A stretch of 64,000 bases of DNA from positions 704,001-768,000 of the forward strand of contig OY843592.1 in the NCBI GenBank assembly GCA_963692865.2. Direction: 5' to 3'. Origin of the DNA: a bacterium. GTDB lineage: Bacteria; UBA8248. A program made the translations under genes and the position numbers. Below are positions 47,833 through 58,132 of the stretch, in pieces; within the stretch, counting starts at the first letter, position 1, and each line of letters opens with the position of its first letter. The notes under the pieces were generated by a model. The model saw only the letters and a program-made list of their open reading frames with translations, did not search any database and was not told the DNA's origin.

Positions 47833-48111
47833 GGGGTTGTTGAAAAAGTTCTCCTCGCTCGGAATTGGCCACCGCCGTCATTCCGGCGAAAGCCGGAATC
47901 CATTTTCAAGCAGAATGACAATGCTCCGGCTTTTCATCTCCCCGTCATTGGTGAGAACCAATTAGAAAAAACAAAGGCAAAGTCAAAATGGATTCCGGCT
48001 TTCGCCGGAATGACGAACAAAACCCCGCCAACTCTTGTAAGGACAGGTCGCGACCTGTCCCTAGAAACCACCTACTTGCAGGCTCCCCTTAAGGGCTTTT
48101 TCAACAACCCC
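47833..48111. mobile_element. MITE-like element, copy 4
   Basis: Same TIR family; inverted repeat extends to a perfect 25 bp (47824-47848 / 48096-48120). Internal inverted pair GTCATTCCGGCGAAAGCCGGAATCCATTT (47877-47905, 47986-48014). No direct-repeat TSD visible. Confidence 0.7.
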
Positions 48112-53015: not shown

Positions 53016-53978
53016 GTGAGCGACAAGAACCTGCAAGCGATATCATCTGCAAGTCGTCAGATTGCGCTTGTCGGGCGTTCCGGACAACCGTCTCCACAAG
53101 TAGGGAACGAATCGCAAGAACCTCATGTTCGAGTTGACTCGTTGAACAGAGCGCCATTCGAGGCTATTTCTCGCCCAATGGTGATTTGTGGCGATGCCAC
53201 GCAAGCTCTGAAGCTTCTCCCTGAAAAGTCCATTCAAACGGTTGTCACGTCACCGCCCTATTGGTCATTGCGCGATTACGGGGTTGAGGAACAGATTGGG
53301 CGGGACGACAGTCTGCGGAGCTATGTCAAGAGCATCGTTTGCACCTTCGAGCAGATAAGGCGCGTCTTGCGCGACGATGGCACTGTTTGGCTGAACGTTG
53401 GTGATTCCTACACATCCGGCAACCGGAGATATCGTGCGCCAGATCGGAAAAACCGTGCACGCGCCATGTCAGTGCGACCGCCTACGCCAGAAGGACTGAA
53501 ACCAAAAGACTTGATAGGTGTTCCTTGGAGATTGGCGTTCGCTCTGCAAGATGCGGGTTGGTGGGTACGAAGTGAAGTCATATGGCACAAGCCGAATGCC
53601 CATCCGGAGTCCGTTCGAGACCGACCGACCAAAGCTCATGAGACGGTTTTCCTCTTGTCAAAGGACAAGGGCTATTACTACGACCACGAAATCGTCAAGG
53701 GGCCGCGCGACCGTCGCCTGCGAACGGTTTGGGAGATTCCCACTGAACCGGTGAAGCGCGTGAATGGGAAAGCAGATGACCATCCCGCGATGATGCCTCT
53801 CACGCTTGCTCGATGCTGTGTAGCCATTACAAGCCGCGATGACAGTATCGTACTCGACCCGTATGCGGGTTCGGGAACAACGCTTCTGGCGGCGCGTGAA
53901 CTCGGGCGAAGGTGGGTTGGGATTGAAATCAAGCCCGCTTTCGTGGACCTGATTGAACGGCGGTTGTGCGTGTCATGA
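53016..53978 (+). CDS. beta-class amino-DNA methyltransferase (probable N4-cytosine, M.SmaI/M.Cfr9I-like)
   Basis: Motif IV TSPPY precedes motif I DPYAGSGTT; KPKDLIGVPWRLAFALQ; visibly lower GC than flanks. Confidence 0.9.
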   Translation: MSDKNLQAISSASRQIALVGRSGQPSPQVGNESQEPHVRVDSLNRAPFEAISRPMVICGDATQALKLLPEKSIQTVVTSPPYWSLRDYGVEEQIGRDDSLRSYVKSIVCTFEQIRRVLRDDGTVWLNVGDSYTSGNRRYRAPDRKNRARAMSVRPPTPEGLKPKDLIGVPWRLAFALQDAGWWVRSEVIWHKPNAHPESVRDRPTKAHETVFLLSKDKGYYYDHEIVKGPRDRRLRTVWEIPTEPVKRVNGKADDHPAMMPLTLARCCVAITSRDDSIVLDPYAGSGTTLLAARELGRRWVGIEIKPAFVDLIERRLCVS

Positions 53979-54730
53979 CGCTCGATGAACTCAAGGCGAC
54001 TCTCGATTCGTTCTCACCGGTCAAGATCGAATTCGTTGCAAGGGTTATGGAATCTTTGGCGAATCCTCCGAGTGCTAACATTCGATCCAGAGGAACATGG
54101 CTGACAAGCGAGCCGGACTGGATTGAATACTTCGGGCTTGCTTTATCGGTTCACCATGGAGCTACTACTGAGCCGCTGGGGCTCTCGTCGTTTGAGGCGG
54201 TGTTCAGAAACGCTTGTGAGCACCTTGGCTGGCCGATTGATCCTCCGGGCTCACGAACCCGGCGATTCGTTGATATGGTCGTTCGGCCTAAGTCAGGCAA
54301 CCGTCGGCGATTGTCTCTAAAGTCCACTGCCGCCAAGAACTTATCCAGGACAACGTTGCATATTTCCAAACTGACGGAGGCAGCATGGGTTCAGGACGCA
54401 CGTACCGCCAGAGATCGACGAGCCCGTACACTTGAGTTATTCAGGGAATACCAGAGGGCCGTTAAGCAGATAGTCATGCTCCGTGCGTTTCGGGAAGACA
54501 TTGGCAAGATACCGTATAAGTATCAGCTCGTTGAGGTTCCAGTCCGCATCTTTGATTCCATTCAGGAGGTACCGCTGAGAGTCTTTGAACGGGATGCGCC
54601 AGTAATCGAATGTACCGTTGGAGATCGCGTGGTGGCAGTTGTGGCCATCGACCGGTCCGATGCAAAGATTACAGTCCGGCGAGTTCAACTTTCTGCCTGC
54701 ACCGTTCATGTGGAATGGGATAGAGCGTAA
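53975..54730 (+). CDS. putative type II restriction endonuclease, SmaI-like
   Basis: ATGA overlap with the MTase. Blocks HH...FE, SRT...D, LKSTAAKNLS...HISK, YQLVEVP and C.VH..WD recall R.SmaI (from memory, not searched). Confidence 0.7.
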   Translation: MTLDELKATLDSFSPVKIEFVARVMESLANPPSANIRSRGTWLTSEPDWIEYFGLALSVHHGATTEPLGLSSFEAVFRNACEHLGWPIDPPGSRTRRFVDMVVRPKSGNRRRLSLKSTAAKNLSRTTLHISKLTEAAWVQDARTARDRRARTLELFREYQRAVKQIVMLRAFREDIGKIPYKYQLVEVPVRIFDSIQEVPLRVFERDAPVIECTVGDRVVAVVAIDRSDAKITVRRVQLSACTVHVEWDRA

Positions 54731-54972
54731 CGGGGGACGTAGTGCCAGTGAAGTCCGCCGGCGCATCGGCGGGGAATGAAACGCCGCCGTTTATTCACCC
54801 GCACCCGCAAATGGATTCCGGCTTTCGCCGGAATGACGGCAGTGGTCGATTCCGACCGATGAGGGGTTTTTCAACAACCCCGGGTAGCGGAGATTCACGC
54901 CCGGAGCGATATTGAAAATGAAGCGCGTCCTGCCGCCGGGCGGTTCTTGTGGTTTTTAAGGGAGATTTGCCG

Positions 54973-55218
54973 ATGTCGGACGCAGAAGTGACGGTCTATT
55001 CGTCCACGTTCTGAGCGCCGTGCAAGGCGGTGAAAGAGTTTCTTTCCCATCACGGCGTGGCGTATACGGAAAAACTCGTTGATCAGGACGAGGAAGCCCT
55101 GGAGGAACTCTTCCGGCGGGCGAACATGCGGGCCACGCCCGTCATATTCATCGGCGAGGAGAAAGTGGTCGGTTTCGACCGGGCGAAGCTCCAGGCGCTT
55201 TTGGGGCTCGCCGCGTGA
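54973..55218 (+). CDS. NrdH/glutaredoxin-like selenoprotein (UxxC), 81 aa
   Basis: RBS AAGGGAG; MSDAEVTVYSSTF-TGA(55012-55014)-APCKAVKEFL...ATPVIFIGEEKVVGFD. The track ORF 55030..55218 lacks the active site. Confidence 0.88.
55012..55058 (+). promoter_or_regulatory. candidate bacterial SECIS hairpin
   Basis: GCGCCGUG (55015-55022) pairs with CACGGCGU (55051-55058); apical stem GAAAG/CUUUC closes loop AGUUU about 22 nt after the UGA. Confidence 0.65.
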
Positions 55219-55514
55219 ACGGGAGGCGGAAGACGCTTCCCTGCCCCGGCTGAGGGCAGCGCATACCCGTCCCGTGGGGCGCGAAGCCGCGCGATCTGAT
55301 CGATTGCGAGAACTGAGCGGGCGTCAGGTTCCGCCTGGGCCGGGCGGAGGGGGCGGAAGCGCTCACCGTCGCGCAGATGGTCTCATGCCCCCTTTGCGGT
55401 GAGTACGTTCCGGTGGATGAGGATACCCCGCCAGGCGCCGTCGTGGAGCACGACGGAAAGAAGCTGCGACTCGAAAAAGAGTTCGGCGCGTTCATCCTCA
55501 CGCCTGCGGAGTAG
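55215..55514 (+). CDS. tandem zinc-ribbon (LysW-like) protein with two in-frame TGA codons read as Sec, 99 aa
   Basis: GTG overlaps the upstream stop (GTGA). MNGRRKTLPCPG-U-GQRIPVPWGAKPRDLIDCEN-U-AGVRFRLGRAEGAEALTVAQMVSCPLCGEYVPVDEDTPPGAVVEHDGKKLRLEKEFGAFILTPAE; TGA at 55251 and 55314; TAG at 55512-55514. Confidence 0.8.
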
Positions 55515-55646
55515 AGGCGGTTTGTGCGGGAACACAAGCGCAGGGCAAGCAATGGGGGTTATTTTCTTCGCAATGGATTCTTTGATAGAGTGTCTTTGCG
55601 CTCGTGGAGAGCGCATTCAGGGCGATGAAGCGCAAGGGAGCAAGCG

Positions 55647-56039
55647 ATGGCTTCTCAACCGCAGGCCGCTGTCCGACCAGCCCGGATTGGCAAATTGAAC
55701 CGGGATTTGCTCGCGCAATTGAAGGAGTTCGAAAATACTCCCGAGGAGGAGCGCTGGCCGGGCGCAACGTGGCCTACGCCTCAGGCGTTTCGGGACGCGG
55801 AGGCGTTCGTTCGTAAGCTGCCGCTGGATTCGGTTCCCATGCCCGATATAGGGCTGGCCGATGACGGAGAAGTCAATTTTCTGTGGAAAAAAGACGGGGT
55901 TCACGTTGATCTGGGATTTTACGGGACGGGCGCCTACTCCTATTTTGCGCGCGGGAAATCGGGGAACAAAATTTATGAAGAGGATGCTCTCGTATCGGAT
56001 GATTTTCCCGGTGAAATTCTAGCATTGTTCAAAAACTGA
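55647..56039 (+). CDS. hypothetical protein
   Basis: RBS AAGGGAG; globular-looking P.P.IG...DGEVNFLW segment; lower GC. Confidence 0.7.
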   Translation: MASQPQAAVRPARIGKLNRDLLAQLKEFENTPEEERWPGATWPTPQAFRDAEAFVRKLPLDSVPMPDIGLADDGEVNFLWKKDGVHVDLGFYGTGAYSYFARGKSGNKIYEEDALVSDDFPGEILALFKN

Positions 56040-56046
56040 CAATACG

Positions 56047-56550
56047 TTGCCGCTCCCAGTATTACACCTCGATGAGTCGAAGAGCGCCGCGCCGGAAATT
56101 TCTCCCGGAATCGTTGAAGACGAAGAACATCTGATTCGCGAAATGTTCAATCCGCAACATATCAACGAAGAAGGGGAAGTAATCGAAAGAGCCATTTCCG
56201 TGAATGAACTGCTTGCAGACGGTTTTTCCGTTCATAGAATACGACATGTTTCGAAGGAATTCGTGGAAAAATCCATACAGGCGAGATTGTCGAGAAAAAG
56301 GAAAGAGCCCTGGACGAGTGAAGGCGTGTCCAGACTAAAGACTCTGGCGGTTCGTCAGATTCTCCTGGACAACGAAAGGGCGTTTGTCGTTATCGATACG
56401 GCCACGGAAGACAATCCCGGACATGCGAGCATCTATTTTGCCGCGCCTCAAAAAGGCAAGGCGTATGCGCGCGATGCGCGTGGTTTCCTTTTGCCGCTTC
56501 TTCAAAACAGGGTCACCCTCGATGAGGCGTATGAGGGCGCAACCGGTTAG
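56047..56550 (+). CDS. hypothetical protein, possible ADP-ribosyltransferase-like fold
   Basis: LIR...GFSVHR...NPGHASI pattern; lower GC; 7 nt after the previous gene. Confidence 0.6.
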   Translation: MPLPVLHLDESKSAAPEISPGIVEDEEHLIREMFNPQHINEEGEVIERAISVNELLADGFSVHRIRHVSKEFVEKSIQARLSRKRKEPWTSEGVSRLKTLAVRQILLDNERAFVVIDTATEDNPGHASIYFAAPQKGKAYARDARGFLLPLLQNRVTLDEAYEGATG

Positions 56551-56604
56551 TCATTCGGAGCAACATTGTATATAATCCCTTTTCCTTAATTTTGGAGATT
56601 CATA

Positions 56605-57561
56605 GTGGCTGAACGCGATTTTGAAATCATCATCATCGGGGCGGGGCCGGCCGGGCTGACGGCGGGGCTGTATACGGCGCGCTCGAAGCTGAACGTGGTC
56701 TGCTATGAAAAACTCGCGCCCGGCGGCGAGATTCTCAACACCGAGCACGTGGAGGACTACCCGGGCTTCGAGCTGGTCGGCGGCCAGGAGCTGGCGGCCA
56801 AATTCGCCGATCACGCCATGAAGTTCGGCCTCAAGATCGAGATGGAGGAAGTCACCGAGGTCAGAAAGGACGGGGACGATTTCATCGTCACGACCGACAT
56901 GGGCGTGCGCCGCTGCGGCGCGGTGATCTACACGCCAGGCGGGCATCCGAAGAAGCTCGGCATTCCGGGCGAGGAGCAATACGCCGGCAAGGGCGTGAGC
57001 TACTGCGCGCTCTGCGACGGCGCGTTCTTCCAGGACGAGGTCATCACCGTAATCGGCGGCGGGAACAGCGCCGTGGAAGAGGGCCAGTTCCTCACGAAGT
57101 ACGGCACGAAGGTCTACATCATCCACCGCCGCGACCAGTTCCGCGCCCATGCGGTCCTGGTGGACAAGATCCGCGAGAACCCGAAAGTCGAGATCATCAC
57201 CGACTACGTGGCCGAAGAAGTCGTCGGCGACGACCGGGAGATGAAGAAACTGCGCATCCGGAACGTCAAGACCGACGAGACGAAAGAGATCGACGCGACG
57301 GGCCTTTTCGTCTTCATCGGTTTTATTCCGAACACGGATTTGATAAAAGATCACGTGGAAAAGGACGATGCCGGTTTCATCCTCACGGACCAGAACATGG
57401 AGACCAACGTTCCGGGCCTGTTCGTGGCCGGTGATTGCAGAAGCCAGTTGATTCGCCAGATCACCAACGCGTCGGGCGACGCGACGACGGCGGCGGTGGC
57501 GGCGGAGAAATATCTCGAAGCCCAGGAAGAGGCCAGGAAACAGGCCGCGGCGGCTTCCTAG
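56605..57561 (+). CDS. trxB: thioredoxin-disulfide reductase
   Basis: GAGPAG, GVSYCALCDG, GGGNSAVEE, HRRDQFRA, VPGLFVAGD. Confidence 0.96.
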   Translation: MAERDFEIIIIGAGPAGLTAGLYTARSKLNVVCYEKLAPGGEILNTEHVEDYPGFELVGGQELAAKFADHAMKFGLKIEMEEVTEVRKDGDDFIVTTDMGVRRCGAVIYTPGGHPKKLGIPGEEQYAGKGVSYCALCDGAFFQDEVITVIGGGNSAVEEGQFLTKYGTKVYIIHRRDQFRAHAVLVDKIRENPKVEIITDYVAEEVVGDDREMKKLRIRNVKTDETKEIDATGLFVFIGFIPNTDLIKDHVEKDDAGFILTDQNMETNVPGLFVAGDCRSQLIRQITNASGDATTAAVAAEKYLEAQEEARKQAAAAS

Positions 57562-57583: not shown

Positions 57584-58132
57584 ATGGAGTTCACCAGAGG
57601 GATTCAGAAGTTCTTTCTCTGGGACATCGTGAAGGGCATGTCCGCCACGCTGCGGCACATGTTCAAGAAACCCGTCACGCTGCAATACCCGACCGAGCGG
57701 TGGGAGCCGCCCGAGCGCTTCCGCGGATTCTTGGGTCTGACGCGCGACTTCAAGACGGGCGAGGAACTCTGCATCGGCTGCCTGAACTGCGAGAAGGCCT
57801 GCCCGGTCGACTGCATCACCATCGTCACGGCGGGCAAGGGCCGCGAGATGTACGCCAAGGAGTTCTACATCGACTACATGCGCTGCATGTACTGCGGGCT
57901 CTGCACCGAGGCGTGCCCCACGACGCCCAAATCCATCGTTCACACCCACCAGTACGAGACGCCCGGCTATTTCCGCGACGATCTCGTCTACGAGAAAGAG
58001 CGCCTCTACGACGTCTGGGAGAAAGAGGTGAACTACACCGGCCCCAGGCCGTGGGGCAAGCTGTTCGGCCTGAGGAACCAGGAGGCGGACACGCGGCCCG
58101 AAACCCCCGCCGAGACGGCGCCCGCCGAATAG
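57584..58132 (+). CDS. nuoI: NADH-quinone oxidoreductase subunit I-like 2[4Fe-4S] protein (standalone)
   Basis: VTLQYP.E...RFRG; CIGCLNCEKACP and CMYCGLCTEACP. Confidence 0.85.
   Translation: MEFTRGIQKFFLWDIVKGMSATLRHMFKKPVTLQYPTERWEPPERFRGFLGLTRDFKTGEELCIGCLNCEKACPVDCITIVTAGKGREMYAKEFYIDYMRCMYCGLCTEACPTTPKSIVHTHQYETPGYFRDDLVYEKERLYDVWEKEVNYTGPRPWGKLFGLRNQEADTRPETPAETAPAE

Follow-up and report, generated by a model that had tools for sequence, protein, structure and literature searches.

A selenocysteine redoxin and an adjacent LysW-like double zinc ribbon upstream of trxB, with mercury-type gene neighbours in relatives

The locus and its selenocysteine codons

We analysed a stretch of 64,000 nucleotides from a bacterium of the UBA8248 lineage (GenBank assembly GCA_963692865.2, contig OY843592.1, positions 704,001 to 768,000 of the forward strand), here called the window, in which two small neighbouring genes encode a redoxin with one selenocysteine (Sec) codon and a zinc-ribbon protein with two (Table 1). 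A first reading of the nucleotide sequence without database searches (the sequence-only reading) had noted that these open reading frames (ORFs) overlap, that they bring together three in-frame TGA codons in about 300 nt, and that a thioredoxin reductase gene, trxB, follows on the same strand after two ORFs of lower G+C content (GC). These observations were all borne out. The two frames share the tetranucleotide GTGA (55215-55218), the TGA codons span 305 nt, and both the ORF reading and the GC profile agree with the described arrangement, with a GC of 0.46-0.53 across orf130 and orf167 as compared to 0.58-0.67 in the redoxin, ribbon and trxB genes.

Table 1. Features of the redoxin-ribbon-trxB region. 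Positions are those of the window; SECIS, selenocysteine insertion sequence.
Feature	Position	Strand	Remarks
Sec-redoxin gene	54973-55218	+	ATG start at 54973, stop TGA at 55216-55218; 81 aa
Sec codon of the redoxin	55012-55014	+	In-frame TGA, ...SSTF-U-APC...; active site U14-A-P-C17
Candidate SECIS hairpin of the redoxin	55030-55048	+	Covariation test
Ribbon gene	55215-55514	+	GTG start at 55215, stop TAG at 55512-55514; 99 aa
Sec codons of the ribbon	55251-55253 and 55314-55316	+	In-frame TGAs; CPGU (U13) and CENU (U34)
Candidate SECIS hairpin of ribbon site 34	55330-55348	+	UCCGCCUG-GGC-CGGGCGGA
orf130	55647-56039	+	Lower GC; genus-specific cargo between ribbon and trxB
orf167	56047-56550	+	Lower GC; always accompanies orf130
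trxB, thioredoxin-disulfide reductase	56605-57561	+	TIGR01292, 362 bits (cut-off 343)
NuoI-like 2x[4Fe-4S] protein	57584-58132	+	Named by sequence reading, outside the family-library scans; conserved neighbour of trxB

Both genes are real and code for selenocysteine. The source genome, a 4.15-Mb assembly that is 97.4% complete with a contamination estimate of 6.7%, encodes tRNA-Sec (76.7 bits), SelA, SelB and SelD, all above curated cut-offs. In the redoxin as well as in the ribbon the in-frame TGA aligns with TGA or Cys codons of the homologues, and the reading frame is kept on both sides. Comparisons were made with a set of 61 related genomes, which provided 29 ribbon loci, from the family of the window's organism (f1) and its sister family (f4), and 13 redoxin loci that lack a ribbon. 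A redoxin match at E≤1e-10 is found in 41 of the 61 genomes and carries a single in-frame TGA in 39 of them, while ribbon frames with TGA or Cys at exactly the codons in question are present in 26. Wherever the redoxin codon could be aligned (113 loci) it is TGA. The ribbon is more variable: of the 30 unique loci, 17 have TGA and 13 have Cys at site 13, as compared to 10 with TGA and 20 with Cys at site 34. Both sites are TGA in nine loci, only site 13 in eight, only site 34 in one, and neither in 12. Eight of the nine doubly TGA-bearing forms belong to the window's genus, in which the ribbon frame is intact across both TGAs in 12 loci. It is this Sec/Cys alternation, together with the conserved frame, on which the Sec reading of site 13 is based. 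Selection on the protein sequences is indicated by the median pairwise ratio of nonsynonymous to synonymous substitution rates (dN/dS) within the genus, which is 0.15 for the redoxin and 0.18 for the ribbon (55 pairs each); the N-terminal half of the ribbon, with the TGAs, has a value of 0.27 and the C-terminal half 0.14.

Starting 18 nt past the U of the redoxin UGA, the transcript can form a candidate SECIS hairpin with the stem GUGAAAG/CUUUCCC and the loop AGUUU. Its core (GAAAG-AGUUU-CUUUC) and two outer pairs are nearly invariant, synonymous positions included. In an alignment of 74 unique sequences, standard pairs occupy 95% of 518 cells, and 24 cells are changed on both sides, all in two pairs (13 exchanges between CG and UA, 11 between AU and GC). 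None of 500 shuffled alignments reached the observed value, and controls in which the structure was slid along the sequence were paired to 48-71%. A hairpin of 9 bp follows ribbon site 34 in all 10 TGA-bearing sequences, and in the version from another genus a G-C pair is replaced by C-G (pair 24-28), a compensatory swap. The mean minimum free energy (MFE) of this region is -17.3 kcal/mol for the 10 TGA forms and -12.6 kcal/mol for the 20 Cys forms, values that come from related and not from independent sequences.

Assembled contigs from RNA libraries give a weak hint that the two genes are expressed as one unit. One contig covers 54985-55310 with 15 differences and thus runs from before the redoxin UGA across the junction of the two genes to beyond the first UGA of the ribbon; DNA can, however, occur in such libraries. 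The contigs of the four runs do not cover 55311-56113 and are uninformative on expression there. The three UGAs also explain why the pair is easily overlooked. Gene callers truncate or miss both proteins, so that a large protein collection holds only fragments of 63-75 aa of the close relatives, and other database entries are labelled 'hypothetical protein'.

Two details of the Sec machinery were noted in passing. The tRNA-Sec search gave two matches of equal score on separate contigs (G000:C1:1207504-1207596 and G000:C4:29719-29811), which may represent a duplicate or, given the contamination estimate, a second strain. The SelD gene (G000:C1:65915-66877) itself contains an in-frame TGA.

Family relations of the redoxin and the ribbon

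The redoxin is a member of an already known kind of protein. It has a glutaredoxin fold (57.5 bits on Pfam Glutaredoxin, cut-off 22.9), and its closest solved relatives are PDB entry 7c10, deposited as 'Glutaredoxin' (E 2.7e-28), and 3zij, a 'thioredoxin' of 78 aa. No curated NCBIfam cut-off is passed, whether for glutaredoxin, NrdH, YruB or Uxx-star proteins; the best model is that of the YruB family (TIGR02196, 79.8 against 88.55), and Uxx-star gives 44.5 against 66. The sequence-only reading had drawn on NrdH-type redoxins, which have a glutaredoxin fold but are reduced by thioredoxin reductase and are recognized by a CVQC active site, a WSGFRP motif and a position in nrdHIEF operons. By NCBIfam the protein is not a member of the NrdH family: the score on TIGR02194 is 50.6 bits against 85.75, and the corresponding motifs are UAPC and VVGFD. 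There are also no nrd genes among the neighbours that were identified (ribbon, orf130, orf167, trxB and mer-type genes), although no family search directed at nrd genes was made.

The first half of the ribbon protein contains the knuckles C10-P-G-U13 and C31-E-N-U34, and the second half C58-P-L-C61 followed by H79-D80. Residues C10, C31, C58 and C61 are Cys in all 30 unique loci and H79 is kept in 28. Sec is exchanged for Cys only at the second ligand of the two knuckles in the first half; the four-ligand site there has the composition Cys2Sec2 in this genome, and relatives have Cys3Sec or Cys4. The second half, as seen across the wider family, has a CPxC motif plus positions occupied by C/H and C/D/G. 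Family searches match nothing but models of the LysW carrier type, with scores of 26.6 on Pfam Zn_ribbon_LysW (PF21344, cut-off 27) and 40.6 on NCBIfam LysW/ArgW (NF041070, cut-off 75), the latter in two stretches, and a relative of the ribbon (P0027) exceeds the Pfam cut-off (40.7 against 27). An AlphaFold2 model calculated from a 20-row alignment is all-beta, with a mean predicted local distance difference test score (pLDDT) of 89.7. Its best Foldseek match is LysW (3vpb chain E), with a root-mean-square deviation of 1.0 over 47 columns, 36% identity, a probability of 1.00 and an E value of 0.013. Judged by the model, the ribbon is a tandem of two LysW-like zinc ribbons.

A profile search of 1.84 billion representative sequences returned only 64 proteins at E≤1e-3, most of them all-Cys double ribbons of 94-129 aa, and a tblastn search of 72,556 plasmids with a ribbon relative gave no match. 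The window's ribbon also has no match at E≤0.1 to two other groups of small Cys-knuckle proteins, TIGR02605 (FmdB family) and NF041197 (dual CXXC motif small protein). One contig, which bears the title Candidatus Tectomicrobia, has another, truncated copy of the ribbon (L046:49-132) upstream of its redoxin-ribbon pair.

Gene neighbourhoods in relatives

The sequence-only reading had proposed a comparison of gene neighbourhoods, which for the redoxin and the ribbon gives a clear answer: the pairing is obligate. A redoxin gene lies directly upstream of the ribbon gene in all 29 Nitrospinota-type genome loci and in 79 of 80 loci from a distant metagenome lineage (see below), the 80th of which begins only 10 nt before the ribbon. 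The redoxin stop and the ribbon start overlap or lie from a few to a few tens of nucleotides apart, a spacing that suggests coupled translation.

The link to trxB is narrower. Within the window's family it is strong, with trxB downstream of the redoxin on the same strand in 21 of the 29 ribbon loci (three of the other eight offer only about 2 kb or less of downstream sequence) and in 11 of the 13 loci without ribbon. A genus of the same family with small genomes has the plain order redoxin-trxB-nuoI. Outside the family the link disappears: trxB is near none of the five ribbon loci of the sister family and none of the 80 metagenome loci. The trxB product is the only protein of the window's genome above the thioredoxin reductase cut-off (TIGR01292), and neither GshB (77.5 against 299) nor glutathione reductase (310 against 480) reaches its cut-off in that genome. 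On the basis of the gene linkage and these two subthreshold scores, TrxB is the likely reductant of the redoxin. The NuoI-like gene served as a synteny anchor in these comparisons and is not claimed as a member of the module.

Outside the window's genus the general partners of the ribbon are not trxB but genes of the MerR, MerT, MerE, MerP and MerB types. MerE, MerT or MerR-type genes are found in 16 of the 17 ribbon loci in question. Where family f1 loci contain trxB, the mer-type genes are mostly located between ribbon and trxB, in several cases together with a SHOCT protein, and three Nitrospinota loci have a MerP-like gene. The transporter assignments are above threshold (Pfam MerE 41.7 against 22.8, MerT 40.3 against 32.9), while the regulator, for which NCBIfam MerR is the best model, scores 138 against 150.85. 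All five aligned regulators possess three invariant Cys residues, ending in CP(I/L), with a spacing of 34 and 8 residues in four Nitrospinota sequences and of 34 and 7 in one metagenome sequence; we take this to be the spacing found in Hg-sensing MerR proteins. MerA is not among the partners. No protein above the MerA cut-off is encoded in the 26 genomes with a ribbon, and the three of the 61 genomes that do have MerA all lack a ribbon. In one Nitrospinota locus a class-I flavoprotein disulfide reductase (L059:2696-4015, minus strand) is located between MerE and MerR; it gives 317 bits on the glutathione reductase model and 302 on the MerA model, both below cut-off, and could possibly be a dedicated reductase for the redoxin-ribbon pair.

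A scan of metagenomes, seeded with a subset of the ribbon profile matches, led to at least 460 confirmed stretches, of which 80 were kept for counting. The ribbons of this lineage and those of Nitrospinota are about one third identical, and the redoxin homologues show 43-54% identity; the metagenome redoxin that was scored gives 84.9 against 88.55 on the YruB model. Of the two proteins only the redoxin has Sec here: its codon is TGA in all 70 sequences that could be aligned, and all 80 ribbons are of the all-Cys form. MerT is found downstream in 68-69 of the 80 loci, a divergent MerR in 62, a MerB-like protein in 67 and a MerP-like protein with a UxxU motif in 58, whereas MerA is found in none. 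The MerP-like protein belongs to the UxxU metal-binding selenoproteins (NF041115, 109 against 95). The MerB-like protein (Pfam MerB, 104.5 bits) has an in-frame TGA in the example that was read, and these clusters, to judge from the codons, hold several selenoproteins, i.e. the redoxin, the MerP-like and the MerB-like protein. In that example cassette (L136:4127-4777 and L136:5899-6200), the TGA of the MerB-like gene is found at ...SL-U-TTINFF..., presumably the region of the second catalytic Cys of MerB, and the MerP-like protein reads GMT-U-GT-U. In the source databases the proteins of this lineage are named 'hypothetical protein' or, mis-assigned, 'paraquat-inducible protein A'. The few members with Atlas labels are assigned to Rokubacteria or Methylomirabilota, and one NCBI record comes from a Thermodesulfobacteriota metagenome-assembled genome. 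Metagenome runs labelled as sponge or coral reef gave 16-33% of the sampled words; no habitat is claimed.

The sequence-only reading had further assumed that an ancestral redoxin-ribbon-trxB order was interrupted by insertion of the two ORFs at 55647-56550. This is not well supported, since a TrxB+NuoI tree places the genomes with direct ribbon-trxB adjacency among carriers of orf130 and orf167, and since in other genera of the family, where the ribbon occurs with mer genes, the same slot holds those genes. In the tree, the lineage that follows the basal ones of the genus has orf130/orf167 without ribbon, and a crown clade (100/99) mixes all states, with insert-less genomes being sister to insert-bearing ones (89/93 and 99/98). 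Because of this nesting, the adjacency seen in four genomes looks derived and is likely due to secondary deletion, the branching of the crown clade being unsettled. By this evidence the orf130/orf167 cassette goes far back in the genus. Differing cargo has occupied the place between ribbon and trxB over time, and the mer genes were lost in the window's genus. Several genomes of the genus have lost the ribbon. One of these has only the first 14 ribbon codons left between redoxin and trxB (L073:5243-5284), a deletion scar.

The orf130 and orf167 genes form a conserved two-gene cassette that is genus-specific at this site. Orf130 is present there in 11 same-genus loci with 61-98% identity and matches nothing in Pfam, NCBIfam or PADLOC. 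Orf167 also finds nothing in Pfam and PADLOC, and its only two NCBIfam matches (E 0.0046 and 0.1) fall well short of the cut-offs; in the Atlas it resembles only unnamed clusters (score 0.96), mostly labelled Pseudomonadota. Distant members of orf167 are 59-61% identical, as compared to 90-94% for TrxB of the same genomes.

Proposed function and related systems

We consider it somewhat more probable than the opposite that the two proteins are a selenium-based pair for the handling of soft metals of the Hg type, which in this organism is recycled by TrxB. The pair would have originated as a component of MerR-controlled, mercury-type operons with MerT, MerE and MerP and without MerA. In these operons the Cys/Sec site of the ribbon would most likely serve as a cytoplasmic acceptor of a thiophilic Hg(II)-type ion, comparable in its role to MerP or to the N-terminal metal-binding domain of MerA. 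The part of the Sec-redoxin would be to reduce the selenenylsulfide or disulfide form of the ribbon, or else to exchange ligands with the metal bound to it, and in the window's family the oxidised redoxin would be recycled by the adjacent housekeeping TrxB at the expense of NADPH. In the window's genus, where the mer genes are gone and purifying selection has retained the pair beside trxB, its function is probably a more general protection against soft metals or of thiols and selenols. The analysis itself shows that the genes are real, that they code for Sec and are obligate neighbours, that relatives have them in a mer context and this family in a trxB context, and that the ribbon has a LysW-like fold; metal binding, the identity and fate of the metal, the contact between redoxin and ribbon and the reduction of the redoxin by TrxB are inferred. 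The electron path from NADPH via TrxB and the redoxin to the ribbon, as put forward in the sequence-only reading, is partly supported, by a pair that is real and obligate and by a strong linkage, in this family, to the only thioredoxin reductase gene of the genome; the conserved partners of the ribbon outside the genus are mer-type genes and not trxB.

Several observations weigh against soft-metal handling by the pair. Neither MerT nor MerE nor a close MerR is encoded in the window's genome, which is 97.4% complete, so that the evidence for mercury comes entirely from relatives. In the textbook mer system MerT and MerE are importers, and the import of Hg(II) in the absence of MerA needs an explanation. 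At least 13 genomes have the redoxin but no ribbon, and in 11 of these trxB follows the redoxin directly. The redoxin must accordingly act on one or more further substrates, and the ribbon can be dispensed with. Three basal lineages of the genus in the TrxB+NuoI tree are without ribbon and without orf130/orf167. A reductant of the glutathione type is conceivable for the redoxin because its closest solved relative, 7c10, was deposited as a glutaredoxin. As to the structural assignment of the ribbon, the window's protein reaches the curated cut-off of neither LysW-family model, and the Foldseek search of the PDB gave nothing at E≤0.001. Finally, at ribbon site 13 RNAalifold found no meaningful consensus hairpin in the 17 TGA-bearing sequences, and the Cys forms fold at least as well as the TGA forms (MFE -14.4 and -11.4 kcal/mol, respectively).

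The alternative that deserves most attention is a pure redox relay, in which TrxB reduces the Sec-redoxin and the ribbon acts, metal-free or metal-releasing, as a selenenylsulfide or diselenide carrier to a further reductase or as a redox switch, metals not being its substrate. We regard it as unlikely, though to be taken seriously: trxB, the only thioredoxin reductase gene of the genome, follows the redoxin throughout the window's family, purifying selection has retained the pair in this mer-less genus, and Sec at both ribbon knuckles is most common in that same genus. According to the title of a 2011 paper by Kim et al., a Sec-glutaredoxin reportedly reduces a Sec-enzyme, which would be a parallel. 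Such a relay does not account for the metal-handling neighbours outside the genus or the lack of trxB in the metagenome loci; the four ligand positions of the ribbon are those of the LysW zinc site, and no conserved downstream electron acceptor is encoded beside the pair. The adjacency could also be regulatory only, with the redoxin as a general TrxB-dependent disulfide reductase and the ribbon as a separate zinc-ribbon adaptor or regulator of mer-type transporters. The ribbon-less redoxin loci, mostly beside trxB, would fit, as would the fact that the redoxin always has Sec irrespective of whether the ribbon is a Sec or an all-Cys form. This explanation seems to us improbable in view of two lineages, with ribbons about one third identical, in which the ribbon never occurs without a redoxin immediately upstream, the overlap or short gap that suggests coupled translation, and the restriction of Sec-to-Cys changes to the second ligand of each knuckle.

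Two further explanations can be rejected. LysW/ArgW-type amino-group carriers, which are loaded on a C-terminal glutamate, are the best family and fold match of the ribbon, and 12 close homologues end in Glu. With scores below cut-off, a tandem of two ribbons and a C-terminus that is not conserved outside the genus, a carrier function is the least credible of all the readings considered; no LysX/ArgX-type or ATP-grasp gene is among the genes identified in the scanned flanks, in which no search directed at LysX was made. Nearly as hard to maintain is the view that in this genus a lost mer operon left the ribbon behind as a decaying remnant, with TGAs that are plain stops. The loss of the mer genes, and of the ribbon in several same-genus genomes, including the one with the 14-codon stub, would be expected of a remnant, but the low dN/dS overall and in both halves, the frame that stays intact over both TGAs in 12 same-genus loci and the site-34 hairpin kept in all TGA forms would not.

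A bolder version of soft-metal handling is that redoxin and ribbon, with NADPH delivered via TrxB or another reductant, carry out a MerA-independent disposal of Hg(II) in mer operons without MerA, either as a two-protein, selenium-dependent mercuric reductase or as a selenolate relay that extracts and sequesters the metal from MerT or from the Sec-containing MerB-like lyase. We consider this doubtful, with a likelihood slightly below that of the redox relay and slightly above that of a regulatory adjacency. If true, the ribbon would be a new selenoprotein family with Sec as a metal ligand.

The redoxin has a counterpart in the glutaredoxin (UxxC) of Clostridium sp. OhILAs (C. oremlandii), an experimentally verified selenoprotein (Table 1 of a 2022 review, PMC9312934). 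Both are small proteins of the glutaredoxin fold with Sec in first position of UxxC, and they share the idea of a Sec-redoxin that serves a Sec-containing partner. Unlike in Clostridium, the partner here would be the ribbon and not MsrA, and the genomic context consists of trxB and mer-type genes. With LysW/ArgW (3vpb chain E) the ribbon shares, as modelled, the globular zinc-ribbon fold and, in sequence, the CPxC...CxxC ligands. It differs by being a tandem, by the use of Sec as second ligand in both knuckles of the first ribbon, by a second ribbon of the type Cys2-His(-Asp) or Cys3-4, and by the absence both of an acidic tail like the EDWGE motif of LysW/ArgW and, among the genes identified, of lysine or arginine biosynthesis neighbours. 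FmdB-family proteins (TIGR02605, U/CxxU) and the NF041197 group are likewise small and built on Cys knuckles, where Sec may replace a Cys, but the window's ribbon does not match them and P0027 scores 21.5 against 31.3 on TIGR02605.

The mer operons, in which MerA is considered the central component, belong to the most thoroughly studied detoxification systems of bacteria. Similar to the canonical operon (MerR-MerT-MerP-MerA, with or without MerB and MerE), the loci of the relatives encode a three-Cys MerR, MerT, MerE and MerP-like and MerB-like proteins on the strand of the pair. They differ in having no MerA and instead the Sec-redoxin and the ribbon, with several selenoproteins among the members, and the window's genome, as searched, has no mer genes at all. 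An always-Sec redoxin and a LysW-like double ribbon in MerA-less MerR/MerT clusters suggest that mercury or soft-metal handling has a branch, so far undescribed, that depends on selenium.

A further related system is the SAO locus (Haft & Gwadz, bioRxiv 10.1101/2022.07.06.499078), a type of Sec-rich cluster around a MerB-like lyase, SaoT and metal transporters for which a role in the handling of organometallic compounds is proposed. The clusters described here resemble SAO by being Sec-rich and by combining a MerB-like lyase, a thioredoxin-fold (seleno)protein and metal transporters. They differ from it in that the MerB-like protein reaches only 54.7 on the SaoL model (cut-off 140), the fold of the redoxin is that of glutaredoxins, the place of the ABC transporter and SaoE is taken by MerT, MerE, MerR and a LysW-like ribbon, and the hosts are not the anaerobic Firmicutes-type organisms of SAO. 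According to the preprint, the catalogue of the SAO authors contained no selenoprotein with a part in mercury resistance. Known selenoprotein families, in the portions used of PMC9312934 (Table 1) and of a 2026 review, include the Sec-glutaredoxin (UxxC), MerT, the UxxU metal-binding protein, the MerB-like protein, HgcA and FmdB-type/dual-CxxC proteins. No LysW-like or double-ribbon selenoprotein and no redoxin-ribbon module of mer operons was found in the consulted parts of the literature searched (the 2022 and 2026 reviews, the BSepDB paper and the SAO preprint), with supplements and BSepDB itself outside this scope. The ribbon, and the redoxin-ribbon pair as a module of mer operons, thus appear to be new, and the ribbon adds a selenoprotein family unmentioned in the reviews searched, with Sec in place of metal-ligand cysteines.

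The pair is distributed over two families of Nitrospinota and the confirmed metagenome stretches. Nitrospinota have been discussed in relation to marine mercury methylation, and for these bacteria the pair provides a concrete gene set for testing.

Some further features of the window were noted in passing. An Rfam search of the window gave nothing at gathering level, and ARAGORN detected no tRNA in it. Immediately upstream of the redoxin, a region of GC 0.52-0.56 (53016-54730) encodes a DNA N4/N6-methylase (Pfam, 161.5 bits) which overlaps a weak SmaI-like endonuclease ORF (23.7 against 27.3); together these are probably an inserted restriction-modification unit. A 27-nt palindrome of the repetitive extragenic palindromic (REP) type, GGATTCCGGC...GCCGGAATGACGG, occurs at 54813-54839 (plus strand), 47875-47901 (minus strand) and 47990-48016 (plus strand), i.e. 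in three copies where none is expected by chance. The segment 54801-54901 is covered by RNA-library contigs with summed depths of 444-1260 in the four runs, as compared to at most about 50 elsewhere on the covered stretch, and numerous short contigs end inside it; the element could be either a repeat of wide occurrence or a small RNA.

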